From contig JAEORO010000227.1 of assembly GCA_016840855.1 (NCBI GenBank), positions 1-10,281 of the forward strand: a stretch of 10,281 nt of DNA, read 5' to 3'. Every line of letters starts with the position of its first letter. The stretch's first letter is position 1. Positions 3-10,001 of this stretch are shown one piece after another. The position numbers and the translations under genes were made by a program. Under the pieces are notes generated by a model. The model had not been told where the DNA came from and did no database searches. It saw only the letters and a list, made by a program, of their open reading frames with translations. Source of the stretch: Candidatus Thorarchaeota archaeon (GTDB taxonomy: Archaea; Asgardarchaeota; Thorarchaeia; Thorarchaeales; Thorarchaeaceae).

Positions 3-3000
3 GATACAGAACTGACTTTGATTGAGGCAGCACTTCCTTCTCCATGTCTTGATTACATGGTCTATACATTCCTATATTCAGATTCATCTGGAAGTGGAAT
101 AACAAATGATACTTCCAATGTGATAATAAACGTAGATTTTGTTGGAGTCACTGTTGATATATCGCAGGTGGACATCTGGGAAATTGATAGTAGCGGAAGA
201 CCGGGTGAATATTCTATTGGATTAAATAATTCAATACTTGGAGGAACAGGTATCTTTTCCATGAGAGTCTTCATCAACTGGTCTGCTGGGATTTATCCGT
301 TTTATACCAACAGAGCGGATTTAATCTCTGTAAGAGTACTTCCAAGAACTGCCATACTTTCAGTCATACCTCCTACTAGCATTCCCTTCGGTGAGAATGC
401 TACATTCTCGTTTACATATGAAGACACGACGGGAGGCACCTCCAGTCCTATCACATATAATGCCTTAGCGATGACGATGTCACTGAATGTGCCAGATTTC
501 ACAATGACATACAACTCGCTGGACAGACTATATACAGTTTCATTCAACACAAGTCAGCTAGGTGCTCCATTAGGACAGAGATTATTGATACTAAGTCTTA
601 CTTGGAGTGGATTACCATTCTATTCAAATGTCACTGGACGAGTTATTGAAATTACGCTGATTGAAAGGCAGACACTTCTAACATATCCTACTCCTCCTGA
701 AACACCCTATGGTAACAATGTCACCTTTAGTGTTACATATATTGACATCGCAGGTTCCGACTCGAAAGTTGTCTTAGGAACCATAATTAAGATATATGAC
801 GGACCAACAGAAATTCCGTTCAGTTATGTTCACATCATGCATGTAGGATCAGGAGAATATCAAATCGAACTGAACACATCCTATTTTAGCCAACCGGGGC
901 TATATTCGCTTAGAATTGAAGCCTCGTCGGGACAATTTTACTACCAGGCAAGAAGTACTACAAAAAGCCTTGAGGTCAATTATCGGACAACATTGTTGAC
1001 CGCTGAGCCAGTTGGATCTGTTCCATATAATGCCTCATTTACTATTATTCTGCATTATCAGGATCTTGATTCACTTGTACCGATAAGAAATGGTACAGGG
1101 GTTGTAACTAATTTAGAGATTCTGAATGGAACTAGTTGGAAGTTTACATGTTCTTGGAGGGCTACGCTACAAAACTATCTTCTCACAATCGAAACATATA
1201 ACCAAGTGCTTGAACTAGGTAAGACCTATTATCTCTGGTTGAATTTCAGCTCAGAATATACAATACCGTTCTATGATTGGGCTGATGTTTTGGTGCCCTT
1301 CCAGATGCGTGAGAGGGACACCAACTTGGTCTTGATTTCAGCGCCATCGCAGACATACTATCAGAATTATGCGAACTTCACTATCTTATTCAGAGATGTG
1401 TTAACATCATCAGGCATCACTGGCGGTTCAATTTCACTGTATTTCGGATTAGAGCTTCTTCAGCCCTCAGTAGACTACACAATCATTGAAGTGAGTGCTG
1501 GCAGGTACACAATTTCAGTAGATACAGCAGTTTTTGGCAGTACTGGAAGTCACACACTGCTGGTGATTGCAGACTGGTCTGCTGGATCTCCATATTATCA
1601 TGATGCACAAAAGAACATTATTTTTTCAGTCATTGAAAGACCAACAAATGTTGAGATAATATTTCCACCGAGCAAAACATGGTATCTTGACAATGTATCA
1701 TTAGATTTCGCTTTCATAGATATGTCAACAGGTCAAAGAGTGAACATTGCACTCGCAGACATCAAAGTATACAGCGGGCTTACACTTCTTTCATATGGTG
1801 AATATGTCATTCAACCAATTGGTTCGATATACAAGCTCCAAATCAACTCCACAGTGATTAACGCTAACCTGGTGAGCAATTGGAACATAACAATTGAAGT
1901 TGATTGGACAGCCGGTGCACCATTCTATAAAGATGATACAACCTCTGTTTTTGTCAGCACAATAGGTAGGATTGGAACTATTGAGCTGAGTCAAGTTGAG
2001 GAAACACCATTTGGAGATACCATGAACATTAGCTTGTTGTACACAGATCAGAGAACAGGGTTACCAATAGAAGGCGCAACCATTGTTCTTGATTGCGTCG
2101 AAGTGCCGGGTCTGACTGAGGGAGTCGATTATTGGGTGCAGATGGGAACTGGTGTGGATTCAGGAAAATATAGAATTCTTGTTAGCACTGCATGGCTGGG
2201 AAGCCTTGGAATCTTTACCTTTGATATTGAAGTGCAATGGAGTGCAGTAGTAAGTCCCTACTATAGCAATATTATGGTAACAGGAGTAAAGGGAAGTGTT
2301 CGCGCAATTCAAACATCTGTTTCTAGCGATTTGCCATCACCCTCAGTAGTAGCATTCTATGAGGACATTTTCTTCTTAATTCAATTCACAGATACAGACC
2401 ATGGAATTTCGATTAATGGTGCAGAAGGACAGATTTCTGTGAGGTATGGAACAACGGGTCCAGAACCATCATCTTGGTCAGTTCAAGCACTAGGTGGAGG
2501 ACAATATAATATTACATTGAGCATGATGGATTCTTTGAGTGTAGGACTACAATCTGTAACCGTTACAATCAATCATTCACCCTATCAAATTGCTCAGACA
2601 TCTGTAGTGTTTGGGTTAAGGAATAGAGTTGCTGGATTATATGCTGTTGTTGCACCTACAAACTATGCAGGGTATGCAACATCTGTCACAATATATCTTG
2701 TTGATTATGACGCTAATGACAATCCACTTCCAGGAGCAACTCTAAACCTAATTTGGGGAGATTCTTCGTCATATGTAGATCTTGGTGACGGTAGCTATAA
2801 TGTAACACTCCAGACTGGAAATCTGAATTTTGGCTCTCAAACTTTAACTGTACAAGCTAATATGTTACATTATTCAACTACTTCGCTGAATGTAGAGATC
2901 AACCTTCTTGCAGTGCCCTCAGAGTTGATAGTCACTTGGAGTGGACCAAGAGGTGGCAGTGAGATATATTGGGGTGAACCCCTAACTATTTACGCAGCAA

Positions 3001-4830
3001 TCAATGATACTCTTAGGAATCAGACGGTTTCAGTAGCGACTATTACCTATGACTGGGTTGGTGGATACGATTCATTTCTGCCCTCAGGAATGACTGGCAA
3101 CTACTCAGCGATTCTTGATACTAGCTTGGGTGCAATATCAGATACAACCATTGTTTTGATTGAGGGAAGTGCACCAAACTATATTGATGCATCATATCAG
3201 CTTGTCTTCAGACTTTTGCCGAGACCAATGGAGGTTATTCCAGAAGAAAGCAAGTATGTCTTTACAGTTCCTAATGGAAACACTGCTGAAGTAATCGTTT
3301 ACTTGCAAGATTTACTTGATAGCAATCTTGTGACTGAAGCGATACTTTCAGCAAGTTGGGTTTACGATACCAATCTAACATTGATTGAGATTCCAACCGA
3401 TCCCGGACATTACAAACTATCAATCCCAACTGGGTCAGCTGGTTCTGGAAGCTACGAAATTTGGATAGATGCATCAAAAGAAAACTACGGTGATTCATCA
3501 GCAACTTTGATAATGGCAATATCAAAAATCCAGATGGTTGTATGGCTAGATAATACCACTGCCACCTATGAATATACTTCGTTCTATTGGTCAGAGATTG
3601 TTAGAATTGGAGTCTATGTTCTTGCACCAGCCCTTAATGCGTCCTATCCATTCTCCACAGGGTTGAACGGTCTGATCGTTACTTGGGCTTCACCAGAACT
3701 TGCCGCAAATGGAACTCTCGTGAATGGAGTCTTAATAGGTGGACCAGGGTATTATTATTATGACTTCAATACTAGCCAAGGAATCGCAGCGCTTCATACA
3801 TTCATCATCTCAGCAAACCCACCAGATAATGATTATGAACGAGCAGACAACTCTACAACGATATTCGTGAAAAATCTAGAGGCATCCATTATTTCACCAG
3901 GCGCGCCTGAATTTGTTTGGGGATGGACAGGTCTAGTTAATGTCACATATTATGACATCTTTCACGCACAGGGTATGCAAGCTGATTTCTCTGAATTCTC
4001 ATGGGCTGGTGGATATGGTAGTGCTATCTATCTAGGTGGAGGAGTTTATGGTATACCAATTGACTCAGCAAAACTCAGACCAGGAACTTATGCCATCACA
4101 ATTGAATTTCGTAAGGCAAACTATGAGGATGCAGAGATAACGATTAGAATCCACATTGCGCCAGTCCCGACGGAGATTGCAATTCTCCTCCATCCAATTT
4201 ATCAAATAGGTGACACATGGACGGATCTACAAGTTCCCTATGGAGAAATACTTACAGTCACCTTATTGTACAACGACACAAATAGTGGTAGAGGAATTCC
4301 AGGGGCTTCGTTCAATAATTCGGTCTTTACAGGACCGGGAGTGTTCGAAGACCCTCTAAACCTAACAAATCATGGAAATGGCAATTACTCCTTTATCTTC
4401 AACACACTTGACTGGAATCTTGGAAACACAATTGAATTTAAGATAATATTCATGCTTGTAAACCATACAACAGCATTCTTTGATTTTGAGATAACCATTA
4501 TCAGAATTCAAACTGATCTTGATGTAGTCGGGCCCTCAGTAATTTCCCTCAACTGGGGGTTGAACACCACCTTCTGGGTTTATTATTCAGATGCGTGGCC
4601 AGGACACTCAGGCGAGGGCATTACTGATGCGACAATAGTAATTGAGTACGGACCACAAGGAGGAAGATACGCTACTGTTGAATACCTTGGTCCCGATACA
4701 AGTCGTCCTGGATACTATCAGTTCAGTATCATCGCATCAAGTATATCAGGTGTCGAAGATGTAATAATCAAGTTCAATAAGACGTGGTATATTGAAAACG
4801 AAGTATCCCTCTCAATTTCTGTAAGTCCAT
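3..4830 (+). repeat. Array of ~15 degenerate protein-level Ig-like repeats (96-116 aa)
   Basis: The motif (R/I/V)xTx(L/I)...P...(P/Y)(Y/F/W)(G)xNxT(F/I)xxx(Y/F)xD recurs at about nt 3, 345, 666, 984, 1314, 1638, 1968, 2307, 2625, 2913, 3222, 3528, 3876, 4164 and 4506. Many units also carry GxYx(I/L)x(F/L/V)(N/D)T and GxYx(L/I)x(I/V). The repeats are not obvious at DNA level. Confidence 0.8.
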
Positions 4831-6158
4831 CTGAGGAGGATATATTGAGGCTCAATACATTCACCTTTGGTGGAGCTCTTATTATCATCCTAATTCTTGG
4901 TTCTCTTGTGTGGGTACGCATTCTAAGAGTGCCAAAGTTAGTTAGAATAATGAGCGGTCAGATTCGGCAAGTACAAAGAGGAAAAGTACCGAAACCAGCG
5001 AAAGGTGTTCGGGCAAGAAATGCCCTTGCGGCAGAGATATTTAATGAAATCTATGAGCCAATTGGATTGAAAAGAAAGGCATCTCAAATGCCTATAGAAC
5101 CCATCATTATAGAAGTACCTGAAATTGATGAGCTAATTATAGATCTCTCAATCCTGACTGGTATGACTCAGGAGGAAATTAATGACTTCAAATCTGAGAT
5201 ATCAAAGATGAAGATGAGTCAACAAACCACATTTGTTAGAGAAGTGATTCATCAGGAGGTCATAAGAGTTGCAGGTGTCCAGAACAAGCCTATTGAACAG
5301 GTGATTGAAGAGGTTGTGGCAGAGCGAAGACGGAGAATTGGAGGATTTGCGCCACCAGTAGCCACACCAGAAGTATACGAAGAAATGGAGGAAGAAGCTG
5401 AGGTTTCCGAGGAAGAAGAGGAAGGTATCGATTTTGAATATAGAATGAGAGAGTTTGAGCTCGAAGAAATGGCTGCAGAACTAGAAAAACGGGGTATTCC
5501 AAAGCACGAGATTGAGTCATTCATTGCTCAGGCTCGTGAACTGCCCAAAGATGTGGTTGAGTTACTTCTCCAGAGCTTTCAGCCAAAAGAAAAAGTGAAA
5601 GAAGTCGAAAAAGAAACGGAGCATCTCTCTGAAAAGGAGATTGAGGACCTTAGAGCAGAGCTGGTCAGACGAAAAGCTAGCGACCGTGAGATTGAGTCGA
5701 TCATTGAACAAGCAAGAAGCCTTCCAAGAGAACTTGCACTTGAATTCTTCAAAGAACCTGAGGATGAGCCTAAGAGGAAGAAAGTCAAGAAAGTCGAGAA
5801 GCTCTCAAAAGAAGAACTTCAAGATTTGAAGAAGGAGTTGGAAGGTAAAGGAGTACCTGAAAAAGAGATCAAGTCAATTATGAAACAAGCTCAAGCAGTT
5901 CCGAAGGATAAAGTTGAGGAATATCTCAAGACAATTGAAGATCAAGAACACAAAGAGCCAATTGATGAGGTTGAATTTGAAGACAGACTCAGCGAGTTTG
6001 AGGTCGAAGAGCTTCGCATGGAACTTGAGAAGCGAGGTTTGCCTGAAGAGGAAATAAACTCAATTGTGAAGCAAGCTAAAAACCTTCCCAGTGCGCTAAT
6101 TGATGATCTATTGAAGAGCATTGATGAAGACCTAGAACATAGGAAAAAACAGGAGTAA
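3..6158 (+). CDS. Giant type-I single-pass membrane (cell-surface) glycoprotein with tandem Ig-like beta-sandwich repeats, a TM helix and a cytoplasmic helical-repeat tail; 5'-truncated
   Basis: The frame is open from base 3 (DTELTLIEAA...), and this segment matches the repeat-start motif (RDTNLVL, RQTLLTY). The TTG at 18 is therefore probably internal, and no signal peptide is present. The ectodomain is T/S/Y/I/V-rich with alternating beta-strand patterns and dozens of N-x-S/T sequons. One hydrophobic helix, FTFGGALIIILILGSLVWV (~4860-4916), is followed by a basic stretch (RILRVPKLVR..., positive-inside rule) and then an E/K-rich tail. Stop TAA at 6156-6158. Confidence 0.9.
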   Translation, partial: DTELTLIEAALPSPCLDYMVYTFLYSDSSGSGITNDTSNVIINVDFVGVTVDISQVDIWEIDSSGRPGEYSIGLNNSILGGTGIFSMRVFINWSAGIYPFYTNRADLISVRVLPRTAILSVIPPTSIPFGENATFSFTYEDTTGGTSSPITYNALAMTMSLNVPDFTMTYNSLDRLYTVSFNTSQLGAPLGQRLLILSLTWSGLPFYSNVTGRVIEITLIERQTLLTYPTPPETPYGNNVTFSVTYIDIAGSDSKVVLGTIIKIYDGPTEIPFSYVHIMHVGSGEYQIELNTSYFSQPGLYSLRIEASSGQFYYQARSTTKSLEVNYRTTLLTAEPVGSVPYNASFTIILHYQDLDSLVPIRNGTGVVTNLEILNGTSWKFTCSWRATLQNYLLTIETYNQVLELGKTYYLWLNFSSEYTIPFYDWADVLVPFQMRERDTNLVLISAPSQTYYQNYANFTILFRDVLTSSGITGGSISLYFGLELLQPSVDYTIIEVSAGRYTISVDTAVFGSTGSHTLLVIADWSAGSPYYHDAQKNIIFSVIERPTNVEIIFPPSKTWYLDNVSLDFAFIDMSTGQRVNIALADIKVYSGLTLLSYGEYVIQPIGSIYKLQINSTVINANLVSNWNITIEVDWTAGAPFYKDDTTSVFVSTIGRIGTIELSQVEETPFGDTMNISLLYTDQRTGLPIEGATIVLDCVEVPGLTEGVDYWVQMGTGVDSGKYRILVSTAWLGSLGIFTFDIEVQWSAVVSPYYSNIMVTGVKGSVRAIQTSVSSDLPSPSVVAFYEDIFFLIQFTDTDHGISINGAEGQISVRYGTTGPEPSSWSVQALGGGQYNITLSMMDSLSVGLQSVTVTINHSPYQIAQTSVVFGLRNRVAGLYAVVAPTNYAGYATSVTIYLVDYDANDNPLPGATLNLIWGDSSSYVDLGDGSYNVTLQTGNLNFGSQTLTVQANMLHYSTTSLNVEINLLAVPSELIVTWSGPRGGSEIYWGEPLTIYAAINDTLRNQTVSVATITYDWVGGYDSFLPSGMTGNYSAILDTSLGAISDTTIVLIEGSAPNYIDASYQLVFRLLPRPMEVIPEESKYVFTVPNGNTAEVIVYLQDLLDSNLVTEAILSASWVYDTNLTLIEIPTDPGHYKLSIPTGSAGSGSYEIWIDASKENYGDSSATLIMAISKIQMVVWLDNTTATYEYTSFYWSEIVRIGVYVLAPALNASYPFSTGLNGLIVTWASPELAANGTLVNGVLIGGPGYYYYDFNTSQGIAALHTFIISANPPDNDYERADNSTTIFVKNLEASIISPGAPEFVWGWTGLVNVTYYDIFHAQGMQADFSEFSWAGGYGSAIYLGGGVYGIPIDSAKLRPGTYAITIEFRKANYEDAEITIRIHIAPVPTEIAILLHPIYQIGDTWTDLQVPYGEILTVTLLYNDTNSGRGIPGASFNNSVFTGPGVFEDPLNLTNHGNGNYSFIFNTLDWNLGNTIEFKIIFMLVNHTTAFFDFEITIIRIQTDLDVVGPSVISLNWGLNTTFWVYYSDAWPGHSGEGITDATIVIEYGPQGGRYATVEYLGPDTSRPGYYQFSIIASSISGVEDVIIKFNKTWYIENEVSLSISVSPSEEDILRLNTFTFGGALIIILILGSLVWVRILRVPKLVRIMSGQIRQVQRGKVPKPAKGVRARNALAAEIFNEIYEPIGLKRKASQMPIEPIIIEVPEIDELIIDLSILTGMTQEEINDFKSEISKMKMSQQTTFVREVIHQEVIRVAGVQNKPIEQVIEEVVAERRRRIGGFAPPVATPEVYEEMEEEAEVSEEEEEGIDFEYRMREFELEEMAAELEKRGIPKHEIESFIAQARELPKDVVELLLQSFQPKEKVKEVEKETEHLSEKEIEDLRAELVRRKASDREIESIIEQARSLPRELALEFFKEPEDEPKRKKVKKVEKLSKEELQDLKKELEGKGVPEKEIKSIMKQAQAVPKDKVEEYLKTIEDQEHKEPIDEVEFEDRLSEFEVEELRMELEKRGLPEEEINSIVKQAKNLPSALIDDLLKSIDEDLEHRKKQE
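5433..6122 (+). repeat. Four tandem ~60 aa cytoplasmic alpha-helical repeats
   Basis: R1 (5433-5579) MREFELEEMAAELEKRGIPKHEIESFIAQARELPKDVVELLL; R2 (5616-5750) LSEKEIEDLRAELVRRKASDREIESIIEQARSLPRELALEFF; R3 (5793-5936) LSKEELQDLKKELEGKGVPEKEIKSIMKQAQAVPKDKVEEYL; R4 (5976-6122) LSEFEVEELRMELEKRGLPEEEINSIVKQAKNLPSALIDDLL. Periods are 180, 177 and 186 nt. Confidence 0.88.
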
Positions 6159-6189
6159 CCGCAATAGCAGAGTTCCAAAGCTGTCATAT

Positions 6190-7664: not shown

Positions 7665-7988
7665 ATGGCTGAGCTAAAGAAGATTGGGGATATTCTAATT
7701 CTCCTTGGTGGAATAGTTGGTCTTATTGAAGGTATTTTGACCATCCTGCAAAACCCTCTGTTGAGGTTTCTGCCATATGTAGTATTAGTAGATCCCTTGA
7801 TAACAGGAATTTTGGGAATAATATTTTCATTAATAGCACTGGTCAACAGTGGTAATCTGAAAATCAAGGTACTTGAGTTTCAGAATAAATGGCTTGTAGT
7901 GCTAATAATGGGTATTCTCATGTACCTGTTTGCCAGCGGTCTTGGTGGCGCATTAGTCATAATTGGCGCAATTCTATTATTGCTTTAG
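7665..7988 (+). CDS. Small hydrophobic membrane protein, ~4 TM helices, unknown function
   Basis: 107 aa, almost all hydrophobic and Gly-rich (ILILLGGIVGLIEGILTIL; ITGILGIIFSLIALV; WLVVLIMGILMYLF; LGGALVIIGAILLLL). RBS-like AGGAG upstream. Confidence 0.82.
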   Translation: MAELKKIGDILILLGGIVGLIEGILTILQNPLLRFLPYVVLVDPLITGILGIIFSLIALVNSGNLKIKVLEFQNKWLVVLIMGILMYLFASGLGGALVIIGAILLLL

Positions 7989-9487: not shown

Positions 9488-9859
9488 CTACTTCTTGAAT
9501 ATGAGGAGTAGTCCACCTAATAGAATCATAAGACCTGCAAGTGTATACAAACTTCTAAACCAAGCTATAGGATCTAACGTGATTGCCGGATATGAAACAA
9601 TCAAGATGATTATGAGTCCAAATAGACTCAGGAGTGCTCCTGACTTTTGTACCTTCCATGATATGAATCCGCAGGCATCGAATGCAAGAGCCACCATTAT
9701 TATTATTACAATTCCGAGAAGGATTTCAATGACACCATCCAACGAACCTGGACCTGGGCTCATCATAGCCCTGTAAATCCGTTCGATTGCAAAAATAAGA
9801 AGCACAAGACCACCTAGCACAGTAAAGCCCTGTGCTGCACCTTCAGCTTTACAACCCAT
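9488..9859 (-). CDS. Small membrane protein, ~4 TM helices, unknown function (123 aa)
   Basis: Re-started at ATG 9859 (MGCKAEGAAQ...), which has GGAGG (9874-9870) 10 nt upstream. The extra 41 N-terminal codons in the ORF track run through the promoter region and look non-coding. There are four hydrophobic segments and a C-terminal KK. Confidence 0.8.
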   Translation of the reverse strand: MGCKAEGAAQGFTVLGGLVLLIFAIERIYRAMMSPGPGSLDGVIEILLGIVIIIMVALAFDACGFISWKVQKSGALLSLFGLIIILIVSYPAITLDPIAWFRSLYTLAGLMILLGGLLLIFKK

Positions 9860-9909
9860 CGCTAATTTTCCTCCAAATGAACAGCCACCCCAAATTGATT
9901 CATCGCAGG

Positions 9910-9916
9910 TATTTAA
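9910..9916 (-). promoter_or_regulatory. Putative TATA box for the 9859 gene (and possibly the aminotransferase)
   Basis: TTAAATA on the minus strand ~50 nt upstream of ATG 9859. The same heptamer occurs at 7592-7598 upstream of the other 4-TM gene. Confidence 0.4.
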
Positions 9917-10001
9917 CCATCCTGTATCAGACCCAGATAATACATACACCTGTATTGCTTGGAGGACATGACGGTATGACATTTAGTCACAAACCTGTGA
10001 G

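Follow-up and report, generated by a model that had tools for sequence, protein, structure and literature searches.

The window analyzed here, 10,281 nt long, is the whole of contig C195 in a metagenome-assembled genome (MAG) of Candidatus Thorarchaeota (3.36 Mb in 259 contigs, 92% complete), which bears out the Asgard host that a preliminary description of this DNA had considered. Frame +3 of the window runs from base 3, with an open 5′ end, to the stop codon at 6156-6158 (2,051 codons), and this open reading frame (ORF; 3..6158, plus strand) supplies the C-terminal part of a predicted surface protein of ~4,001 aa, which we call giant 2. We lean toward reading giant 2 as an adhesin or contact receptor of long reach, with a tail on which cytoplasmic partners dock; anatomy, topology, and co-inheritance with other genes were computed, and from these we infer adhesion and binding. 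A variable DUF2341/LamG-type head would be presented by a stalk of ~23 immunoglobulin (Ig)-like modules on an S-layer-free Asgard surface, and a transmembrane (TM) helix would lead into a tail that begins with a strongly basic, membrane-hugging helix. The conserved tail would then act as a docking platform for cytoplasmic partners, for which a co-inherited leucine-rich repeat (LRR) protein and a GTPase-like protein would be the best candidates.

Predicted membrane topology and anatomy of the tail

Hydropathy analysis of joined giant 2 gave only two peaks (Kyte-Doolittle score of >1.8), an N-terminal signal-like segment and a segment at aa ~1622 to 1641 of P0001, the product of the window ORF. 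The latter is the TM helix (FGGALIIILILGSLVWVRIL; 4866..4925, plus strand; residues 2 to 21 of the tail model), which is preceded by acidic residues and followed by a basic juxtamembrane segment (4926..5030, plus strand) with a net charge of +10. The 35 residues after the helix include 10 K/R and no D/E; alignments show in this segment the family-invariant motif VPK..R ... P.P ... R, and the model predicts an amphipathic helix. N-x-S/T sequons number 61 in the ectodomain (35 expected from composition) and 0 in the 407-aa tail (0.4 expected). Because the signal-like N terminus, the positive-inside segment, and the sequon distribution agree, giant 2 is predicted to be a type I protein with a cytoplasmic tail.

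The AlphaFold2 (AF2) model of the tail, built on a 31-row alignment of tails, had a mean predicted local distance difference test score (pLDDT) of 79.4 and a predicted template modeling score (pTM) of 0.27. It runs from the TM helix through the amphipathic basic helix, a helical module, and an acidic disordered linker to four three-helix bundles. The helical domains reached pLDDT values of 85 to 93 with disordered linkers between them, and the low pTM fits independent domains on flexible linkers. The membrane-proximal module (5115..5342, plus strand) consists of four helices (pLDDT of ~90) and is the best-conserved portion of the tail according to model and alignments. By model and charge count, an acidic disordered linker with a net charge of −13 (5343..5447, plus strand) comes next, and model and repeat alignment then placed the bundles, all on the plus strand, at 5427..5570 (repeat 1, net −5), 5601..5747 (repeat 2, net −2), 5778..5927 (repeat 3, net −2), and 5964..6113 (repeat 4, net −7, the sole copy kept in paralogs). 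These four bundles (pLDDT of 86 to 93, joined by short disordered linkers) are copies of one ~50-aa repeat, every copy is net acidic, and the whole cytoplasmic part carries −29. The membrane-proximal module was considered as a fifth repeat and set aside, the hhalign probability of 35% over 23 columns being too weak. The single TM helix, the basic juxtamembrane segment, the inward-facing tail (as a prediction), and the structured tail of ~410 aa that the preliminary description had proposed all held up, the last as 407 conserved residues with folded helical domains.

There appears to be no known fold or family that would account for the tail. Searches against Pfam and NCBIfam returned only subthreshold matches (the NCBIfam one being MHJ_0274), fold searches led to generic helical bundles only, and the ESM Atlas gave no usable match. 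When 61 repeats were scanned singly against Pfam (E ≤ 1), matches were obtained to the Bap31 C-terminal coiled coil (26 repeats), RecX_HTH1 (20), cwf21 (14), RecX_HTH2 (11), and SAP (8), with a best E value of ~3e-4 (2.7e-4 for RecX). The RecX and SAP matches, together with the automatic names “RecX” or “HTH antitoxin” that JGI gives to some fragments, could point to a nucleic-acid- or RecA-family-binding tail, in which SAP/HeH- or RecX-like three-helix repeats would tether DNA or a filament to the membrane. All repeat 4 matches fell below the curated cutoffs, however (15.6 bits against 23.9 for SAP; 13.4 and 13.9 bits against 26 for RecX_HTH1 and RecX_HTH2), and the net acidic charge of the repeats disfavors such a function, which we regard as extremely improbable. 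The EF-hand region of polycystin-2, the best match when the repeat alignment was searched as a profile against PDB, was likewise rejected as a relative of the repeat: its E value was 3.6e-4 over the whole sequence and 0.27 for a single stretch, and the likeness was judged to be one of composition or helix-loop-helix form.

Gene reconstruction, ectodomain, and distribution of the tail family

The 5′ truncation of the gene is an assembly artifact only, given an overlap with contig C2, a continuous frame, and a collinear ortholog. Reverse complemented, the start of C2 is identical to window nucleotides 1 to 127, and the giant 2 frame stays open for 1,950 codons into that contig (L003:3-5975, minus strand), back to an ATG with basic residues and a hydrophobic signal-like segment after it. 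Merging the C2-encoded part (P0002) with the C195 part at their 41-residue overlap gives 4,001 aa. In G093, a genome of the same genus, the giant 2 ortholog is a single uninterrupted ORF of 3,977 aa that is collinear over the C2/C195 join and 75% identical overall. Unitigs of two other studies extend 395 and 283 nt beyond window position 1; being short, they are insufficient alone as proof of the join. In unitigs from four independent runs, strain-level variants are dense at window positions 40 to 230, where C2 and C195 separate, and this crowding accounts for the break in the MAG assembly.

Upstream of the TM helix, 14 Ig-like beta-sandwich modules of ~100 to 115 aa each were detected in the window with a hidden Markov model (HMM; domain E ≤ 0.01; 3..4850, plus strand), starting at aa 14, 127, 234, 340, 451, 559, 668, 783, 888, 988, 1089, 1305, 1411, and 1516 of P0001. 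The double spacing of 216 aa in this series suggests one further module at ~aa 1195. The module HMM, grown from one single repeat, also found 8 modules in the C2 part at the same cutoff, so that the stalk comprises about 23 modules (22 detected and 1 inferred), 15 of them in the window, and its extended length would be of the order of 90 nm. One module modeled singly with AF2 (666..992, plus strand; 118-row alignment of modules from giant 2 and its relatives) is an all-beta, seven-strand sandwich with a pLDDT of 95.1 and a pTM of 0.83. Foldseek matched this model to PDB entries at E ≤ 0.001 in 193 of the best 500 matches counted, the best solved structures being titin I-set Ig domains (E = 2e-5; template modeling score of 0.64 to 0.71; 13 to 19% identity). 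No Pfam Ig, I-set, FN3, or cadherin family was matched in P0001 at E ≤ 0.1, or at E ≤ 1 in P0002 and P0003, the giant encoded directly upstream on C2; “Ig-like” is therefore correct at the level of fold, as the AF2 sandwich and the titin I-set matches indicate. The earlier reading of this DNA, an ORF of >2,050 aa with at least 15 Ig-like modules folding as beta-sandwiches, proved sound, though the full protein is about twice as long as first seen, and the upstream contig that was to supply the N terminus turned out to be C2, with its signal-like start.

The head, comprising the N-terminal ~1,100 residues, bears a DUF2341 domain (PF10102; P0002 aa 597 to 664; E = 3.4e-6; 27.9 bits against a cutoff of 23.4). 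We found 54 relatives of the head among long proteins from Thor-, Sif-, Odin-, Hod-, and Hermod-archaea; many carry both PF10102 and the LamG jelly roll PF13385 in precomputed annotation, and Pfam did not report PF13385 on P0002. Their automatic NCBI names are “DUF2341 domain-containing” or “LamG-like jellyroll fold domain-containing protein.” Identity to the G093 ortholog was 64% in the head, 80% in the Ig-like stalk, and 77% in the tail (85% in the membrane-proximal module and 80% in the repeats). These identities show the tail to be under apparent purifying selection comparable to that on the stalk, with the head as the variable part, as would be expected if a variable tip bound ligands while the stalk and tail were constrained. 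Cultured Lokiarchaeia have no ordered S-layer and many unidentified protruding surface proteins, which are held to mediate the contacts between cells that figure centrally in eukaryogenesis models (PMC9834061). A variable head on an Ig-like stalk, considered alongside such S-layer-free, protein-studded envelopes, argues for an adhesin or contact receptor.

Giant 2 is one of six paralogs in its genome and not an isolated oddity. The tail-bearing giants are encoded on C195/C2 (giant 2), directly upstream of it on C2, and on C248 (4,145 aa), C53 (at least 4,279 aa), C176 (2,573 aa), and C181 (a fragment). Among 7,270 ORFs of ≥80 aa in the source genome, the tail-module profile was strong only in these six (next best E value, 4.7e-4), and neither the module nor the repeat occurred as a free-standing copy. 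Three alignments with invariant columns gave the family a common plan of TM helix, VPK..R...P.P...R segment, helical module, and at least one C-terminal three-helix repeat. A tail relative at 89% identity is present in a Candidatus Thorarchaeota archaeon record. Among 201 genomes sampled from the whole phylum, 60 were matched by the single tail sequence, namely, 42 of 43 in family f1, 1 of 1 in f2, 14 of 19 in f12, and 2 of 4 in f3, and the remaining 23 families gave no match. With the module profile, 82 of the 201 were matched (E ≤ 1e-5); strong matches (E ≤ 1e-40) were confined to f1 and f2, which are the host family and its sister family in one order, and weak matches (1.9e-14 or worse) occurred in f3 (4/4), f12 (17/19), f9 (10/40), f7 (3/5), f15 (2/4), and f21 (2/3), with no match in the other 19 families of the sample.

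Among 1,835,955,588 representative proteins, the module was matched 121 times at E ≤ 0.001, nearly always 100 to 430 residues before the C terminus of a long protein or fragment. Named members among those looked up were called “hypothetical protein,” and the weak relatives include proteins labeled Hermod-, Odin-, and Hel-archaeota and Promethearchaeota, of which those labeled Hermod and Odin retain the TM helix, the basic motif, and acidic helical units. A repeat-profile search among longer proteins returned only fragments of the same tail family. Searched alone, as had been proposed, the tail thus proved rare; these matches show a family that appears restricted to Asgard archaea and strong in one order only, with several copies per genome.

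The giant on C176 (L017:4385-12094, minus strand) belongs to a subfamily whose length hardly varies (mostly ~2,560 to 2,630 aa for open frames in the rows listed), often encoded two or three in tandem. This subfamily recurs across genera of the host family and is a candidate core envelope protein.

It is possible that the giants form a passive surface coat that replaces an S-layer and that the tail only retains, orients, or clusters them, through self-association or through lipid contact of the basic helix, with no dedicated cytoplasmic partner. The sharing of TM helix, basic helix, and module by six paralogs whatever their neighbors would fit such a coat, as would the juxtamembrane charge of +10, the failure to detect a partner, and a fixed-length subfamily, often in tandem pairs, of the kind expected of a core envelope component. 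A TM helix and a few basic residues suffice for retention, yet 200 to 400 folded helical residues are kept at stalk-like identity, and two cytoplasmic proteins are inherited along with the four-repeat form (see below). We consider this explanation doubtful, if serious enough to be kept in view, and continue to prefer an adhesin or contact receptor with a docking tail. Should the tail be an anchor only, the family would still be useful as a marker of the Thorarchaeial cell surface.

The four-gene island and candidate partners of the tail

Giant 2 is one of four genes in an accessory island, the others coding for giant 1, a small LRR protein, and a GTPase-like protein of the Ras/Roc type. In the source MAG, P0003 lies directly upstream of giant 2 on C2; the same tandem pair is found in G093, and G140 and G170 each carry the two giant tails in tandem on a single contig. 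The LRR gene of G093 and G140 (151 to 175 aa) lies upstream of the tandem giants on the same strand, at a distance of 181 nt from giant 1 in G093 and 20 to 377 nt in G087, G152, and G158; its product has no signal peptide and is taken to be cytoplasmic. The same two genomes encode one or two divergently transcribed proteins of ~420 aa with a Ras/Roc-type G domain (Pfam Ras and Roc both above cutoff), located at L045:13023-14276 (minus strand) in G093 and, as two tandem copies, at L041:2619-3887 and 4014-5258 (plus strand) in G140. In the source MAG, the ortholog of this gene (C19:13699-14967, minus strand; 82% identical) is at the extreme end of C19, so the LRR gene and the start of giant 1 fall into an assembly gap.

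The Ras/Roc-type protein has a conserved N-terminal domain of ~200 aa without family assignment. Its G domain is nearest to Ypt1/Rab among solved structures (E = 7e-10) and keeps NKxD; the P-loop lysine is absent in most orthologs and switch II is degenerate, and the protein may be a pseudo-GTPase.

Roc, LRR, and giant genes are adjacent in G093, G140, G087 (genus g1), G158 (g9), and G152 and G179 (g12), with the four-repeat giant of G179 on the opposite side of the Roc/LRR pair. A tail match over all four repeats was obtained in 12 genomes (G000, G087, G093, G120, G140, G149, G197, G152, G170, G179, G158, and G204). An ortholog-grade LRR match (E ≤ 1e-30, full length) was present in 10 of these 12, the protein not being found in G000, where there is an assembly gap, or in G170, which is 88% complete; among family genomes without a four-repeat giant that were in both samples, it was present in 0 of 27. 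The Roc ortholog was not found in any of four same-genus genomes without the giant, where only G-domain paralogs of 31 to 33% identity occur. This distribution shows giant 2 to be co-inherited, as far as gene content and order can tell, with a second giant and two signaling-type cytoplasmic proteins. Co-inheritance with an LRR protein and a Ras/Roc-type GTPase-like protein makes an intracellular partner of the tail plausible.

Within the genus, the island is either there or missing as a whole at a single chromosomal site. The aminotransferase and AspRS genes flanking the island are 37.3 kb apart in G140 and 2.6, 2.6, 3.0, and 3.6 kb apart in G103, G194, G200, and G108. At the empty sites of G103, G200, and G194, the short interval contains a methylase gene, joined in G103 and G200 by a homolog of the small ORF that follows the window stop codon. 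Since the empty sites keep these backbone genes, the unit gained or lost is exactly the Ras/Roc-type protein(s), the LRR protein, giant 1, and giant 2. In the window, the right border of the island (6159..6189, no strand) lies between the stop codon ending at 6158 and the conserved backbone gene for an N6/N4 DNA methylase (PF01555; 6190-7524, minus strand) at a position shared with relatives. Methylase homologs occur at the same site with the island (G093 and G087) and without it (G103, G200, and G194), and G140 is without the methylase. Farther along the window are two small ORFs to which no family could be assigned, one of 107 aa (7665-7988, plus strand) and one of 164 aa that ends in a hydrophobic segment with a weak match to Gram_pos_anchor (9488-9982, minus strand; E = 0.02); both are conserved in position and sequence (57 to 85% identity) in same-genus genomes.

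The island is patchy within three genera, and the flanks of the cassette differ in g9 and g12. Such patchiness, with an indel at a fixed site in one genus and different flanks in others, raises the question of whether the giants are cargo of a mobile or conflict element, that is, of an aloposon-like cassette, or one for polymorphic recognition, that would serve in telling self from non-self, in exclusion, or in conflict between cells. The head being the most variable part would suit this role; tandem Thorarchaeota giants are reported to be distantly related to the aloposon giants of Heimdallarchaeum (Wu et al. 2022, PMC8813620), and variable Ig proteins have a precedent in VARTIG of Thermococcales (PMC8416519). 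However, 0 tRNA genes were found in the window and loci L003, L014, L015, L017, and L018, and no integrase, transposase, or MinD/ParA gene was found by Pfam among the 21 flanking ORFs scanned. The C terminus is moreover a cytoplasmic tail and not toxin-like, and loss by deletion accounts for the patchiness equally well, so we judge a mobile or conflict element to be improbable.

Beyond the Roc-type gene(s), G093 and G140 encode an alpha/beta hydrolase, AspRS, two ESCRT-II subunits, and Vps4. The ESCRT cluster (Vps4 with MIT and AAA domains, a Vps25-like ESCRT-II subunit, and an EAP30/Vps22-36-like subunit) stands by AspRS ~5 kb upstream of the island (L045:7700-10422 in G093; L041 in G140). 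The preliminary description had suggested that the tail couples surface contact to a cytoskeleton, and an extended form of that proposal would have the tail bind actin regulators or ESCRT components and so link contact to cell shape. An Asgard host, a modular helical tail, and the ESCRT-II/Vps4 cluster near the island in G093 would fit this proposal. The ESCRT genes belong to the backbone past AspRS, the left flank of the island, though, and are kept without the island, so their proximity is positional and not a matter of co-inheritance; no resemblance of the tail to modules known to bind actin or ESCRT proteins was found, and no result links it to actin, profilin, or ESCRT. Cytoskeletal coupling thus found no support, and we rate it as very improbable.

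A more specific form of contact receptor would work from the outside in. Its stalk of ~90 nm would sense contact with a cell or surface, and the three-helix tail would recruit the LRR protein and the Ras/Roc-type, possibly pseudo-, GTPase. We think this scheme rather unlikely. If it were true, it would represent a prokaryotic module leading from receptor to small GTPase, carried by a transferable island of four genes, and could be a forerunner of adhesion-receptor signaling and GTPase-guided membrane traffic in eukaryotes. Strains with and without the island and soluble domains (the tail, the LRR protein, and the G domain) make a coupling of contact to GTPase testable.

Several observations weigh against a docking tail, whether or not it signals. 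G204, a closed genome, has its LRR/Roc-like pair beside a DUF2341 giant broken by a run of N, 260 kb from the four-repeat ortholog. Near the other four paralogs, no LRR or Roc match was obtained by tblastn at E ≤ 1e-4 in 13 context loci whose gene starts were roughly estimated, and because those paralogs carry the same module, it must also function without the LRR/Roc pair. The degenerate P loop and switch II suggest that the GTPase-like protein may not be a switch, and the genomes in which the genes co-occur are related and are not independent samples, even if presence and absence of the island splits four genera internally. Linkage to the giants is no demonstration that either protein contacts the tail. 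With no recognizable fold relative or family, the functional reading of the tail leans on context, and binding, partner recruitment, and signaling by it are put forward as proposals; among the 20 runs listed for the gene, none was an RNA run.

Known systems and other giants of the source genome

The preliminary description likened giant 2 to eukaryotic adhesion receptors. Like IgSF adhesion molecules of the L1/NCAM type, it has a tandem Ig-fold ectodomain, a predicted type I topology, and a cytoplasmic tail, here conserved and folded, and the solved structures that best match its modeled module are titin I-set domains. That much of the comparison stands; the tail is unlike those of Ig-CAMs or cadherins and unrelated to ankyrin- or catenin-binding tails, and giant 2 has no sequence membership in the superfamily and is 10-fold longer. 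Bacterial giant Ig-repeat adhesins and “periscope” proteins, of which Embp and a 7,651-aa Mobiluncus adhesin are reportedly examples, similarly present a distal binding head on a tandem Ig-like stalk. These adhesins are wall anchored (LPXTG) or secreted and are not known to have a structured cytoplasmic domain. Archaeal S-layer glycoproteins with a C-terminal TM helix or PGF-CTERM resemble giant 2 in being N-glycosylated (sequons are predicted in giant 2) and in their C-terminal TM helix, but giant 2 continues for 407 folded residues past that helix instead of a few basic ones. The island recalls ROCO proteins (LRR-Roc-COR) in its genetic coupling of an LRR to a Roc/Ras-type G domain; in contrast to these, LRR and Roc are separate, divergent genes, Pfam found no COR, the P loop is degenerate, and the nearest structures are Rab/Ypt1.

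By its DUF2341 head, giant 2 is a member of the Asgard DUF2341/LamG giants. That label covers the head only, and the TM helix, tail, and LRR/GTPase-like island appeared in no annotation seen. An N-terminal Laminin_G_3 domain is the commonest architecture of archaeal huge proteins, the function of which is not understood (PMC11573180). The Heimdallarchaeum aloposon giants “Otus/Ephialtes” are likewise tandem paralogous Asgard genes of 3,000 to 6,000 aa with a patchy, island-like spread (PMC8813620). The aloposon differs in its integration at a tRNA gene downstream of the giants and in its four upstream genes, which include a MinD/ParA ATPase (PMC8813620); the giant 2 flanks examined have neither, and the upstream genes found there encode LRR, Ras/Roc, alpha/beta hydrolase, and AspRS proteins. 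The passages of Wu et al. consulted describe no cytoplasmic tail for the giants (PMC8813620). In VARTIG of Thermococcales, too, a variable gene module encodes a large archaeal protein with Ig domains, from another order and with another domain layout; its C-terminal Ig domain is hypervariable, whereas the C-terminal tail of giant 2 is conserved (PMC8416519).

Since LamG giants have been tallied (PMC11573180) and tandem Thorarchaeota giants reported (PMC8813620), the existence of such giant genes is not new. We found no description in the literature of the TM-plus-helical tail, its Asgard restriction, or the LRR/Roc/giant island, though PMC8813620 may depict the same Thorarchaeota tandem giants in its Extended Data Fig. 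7 and supplements. The undescribed system for which the preliminary description had thought this protein the best candidate is accordingly so in part: no characterized family has this architecture, giants of both kinds are already in print, and what is undescribed is the intracellular module and gene context of a giant Ig-repeat surface protein. These give one Asgard surface-protein family a concrete anatomy, that of an Ig-like type I giant with a folded, conserved tail almost confined to one order.

Other very large genes were noted in the source MAG. ORFs on C144, C102, C254, C162, C58, and C5 (4,885, 4,048, 2,303, 2,266, 2,163, and 2,067 aa, respectively) are without the tail module, which indicates several unrelated families of very large proteins in the MAG. 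On C176, the tail-bearing giant has a stop/start overlap with the next gene (at least 1,462 aa), which has a weak Invasin_D3 match. Three further proteins, P0112, P0118, and P0122 (~1,060 to 1,170 aa), of which the only named one is labeled Promethearchaeota, have a different ectodomain and end in a TM helix and the motif (Y/F)P(K/E)..RK.RK..K.L.K..(I/L)P with little else. A basic juxtamembrane motif of this type may be a more general C-terminal anchor signal.

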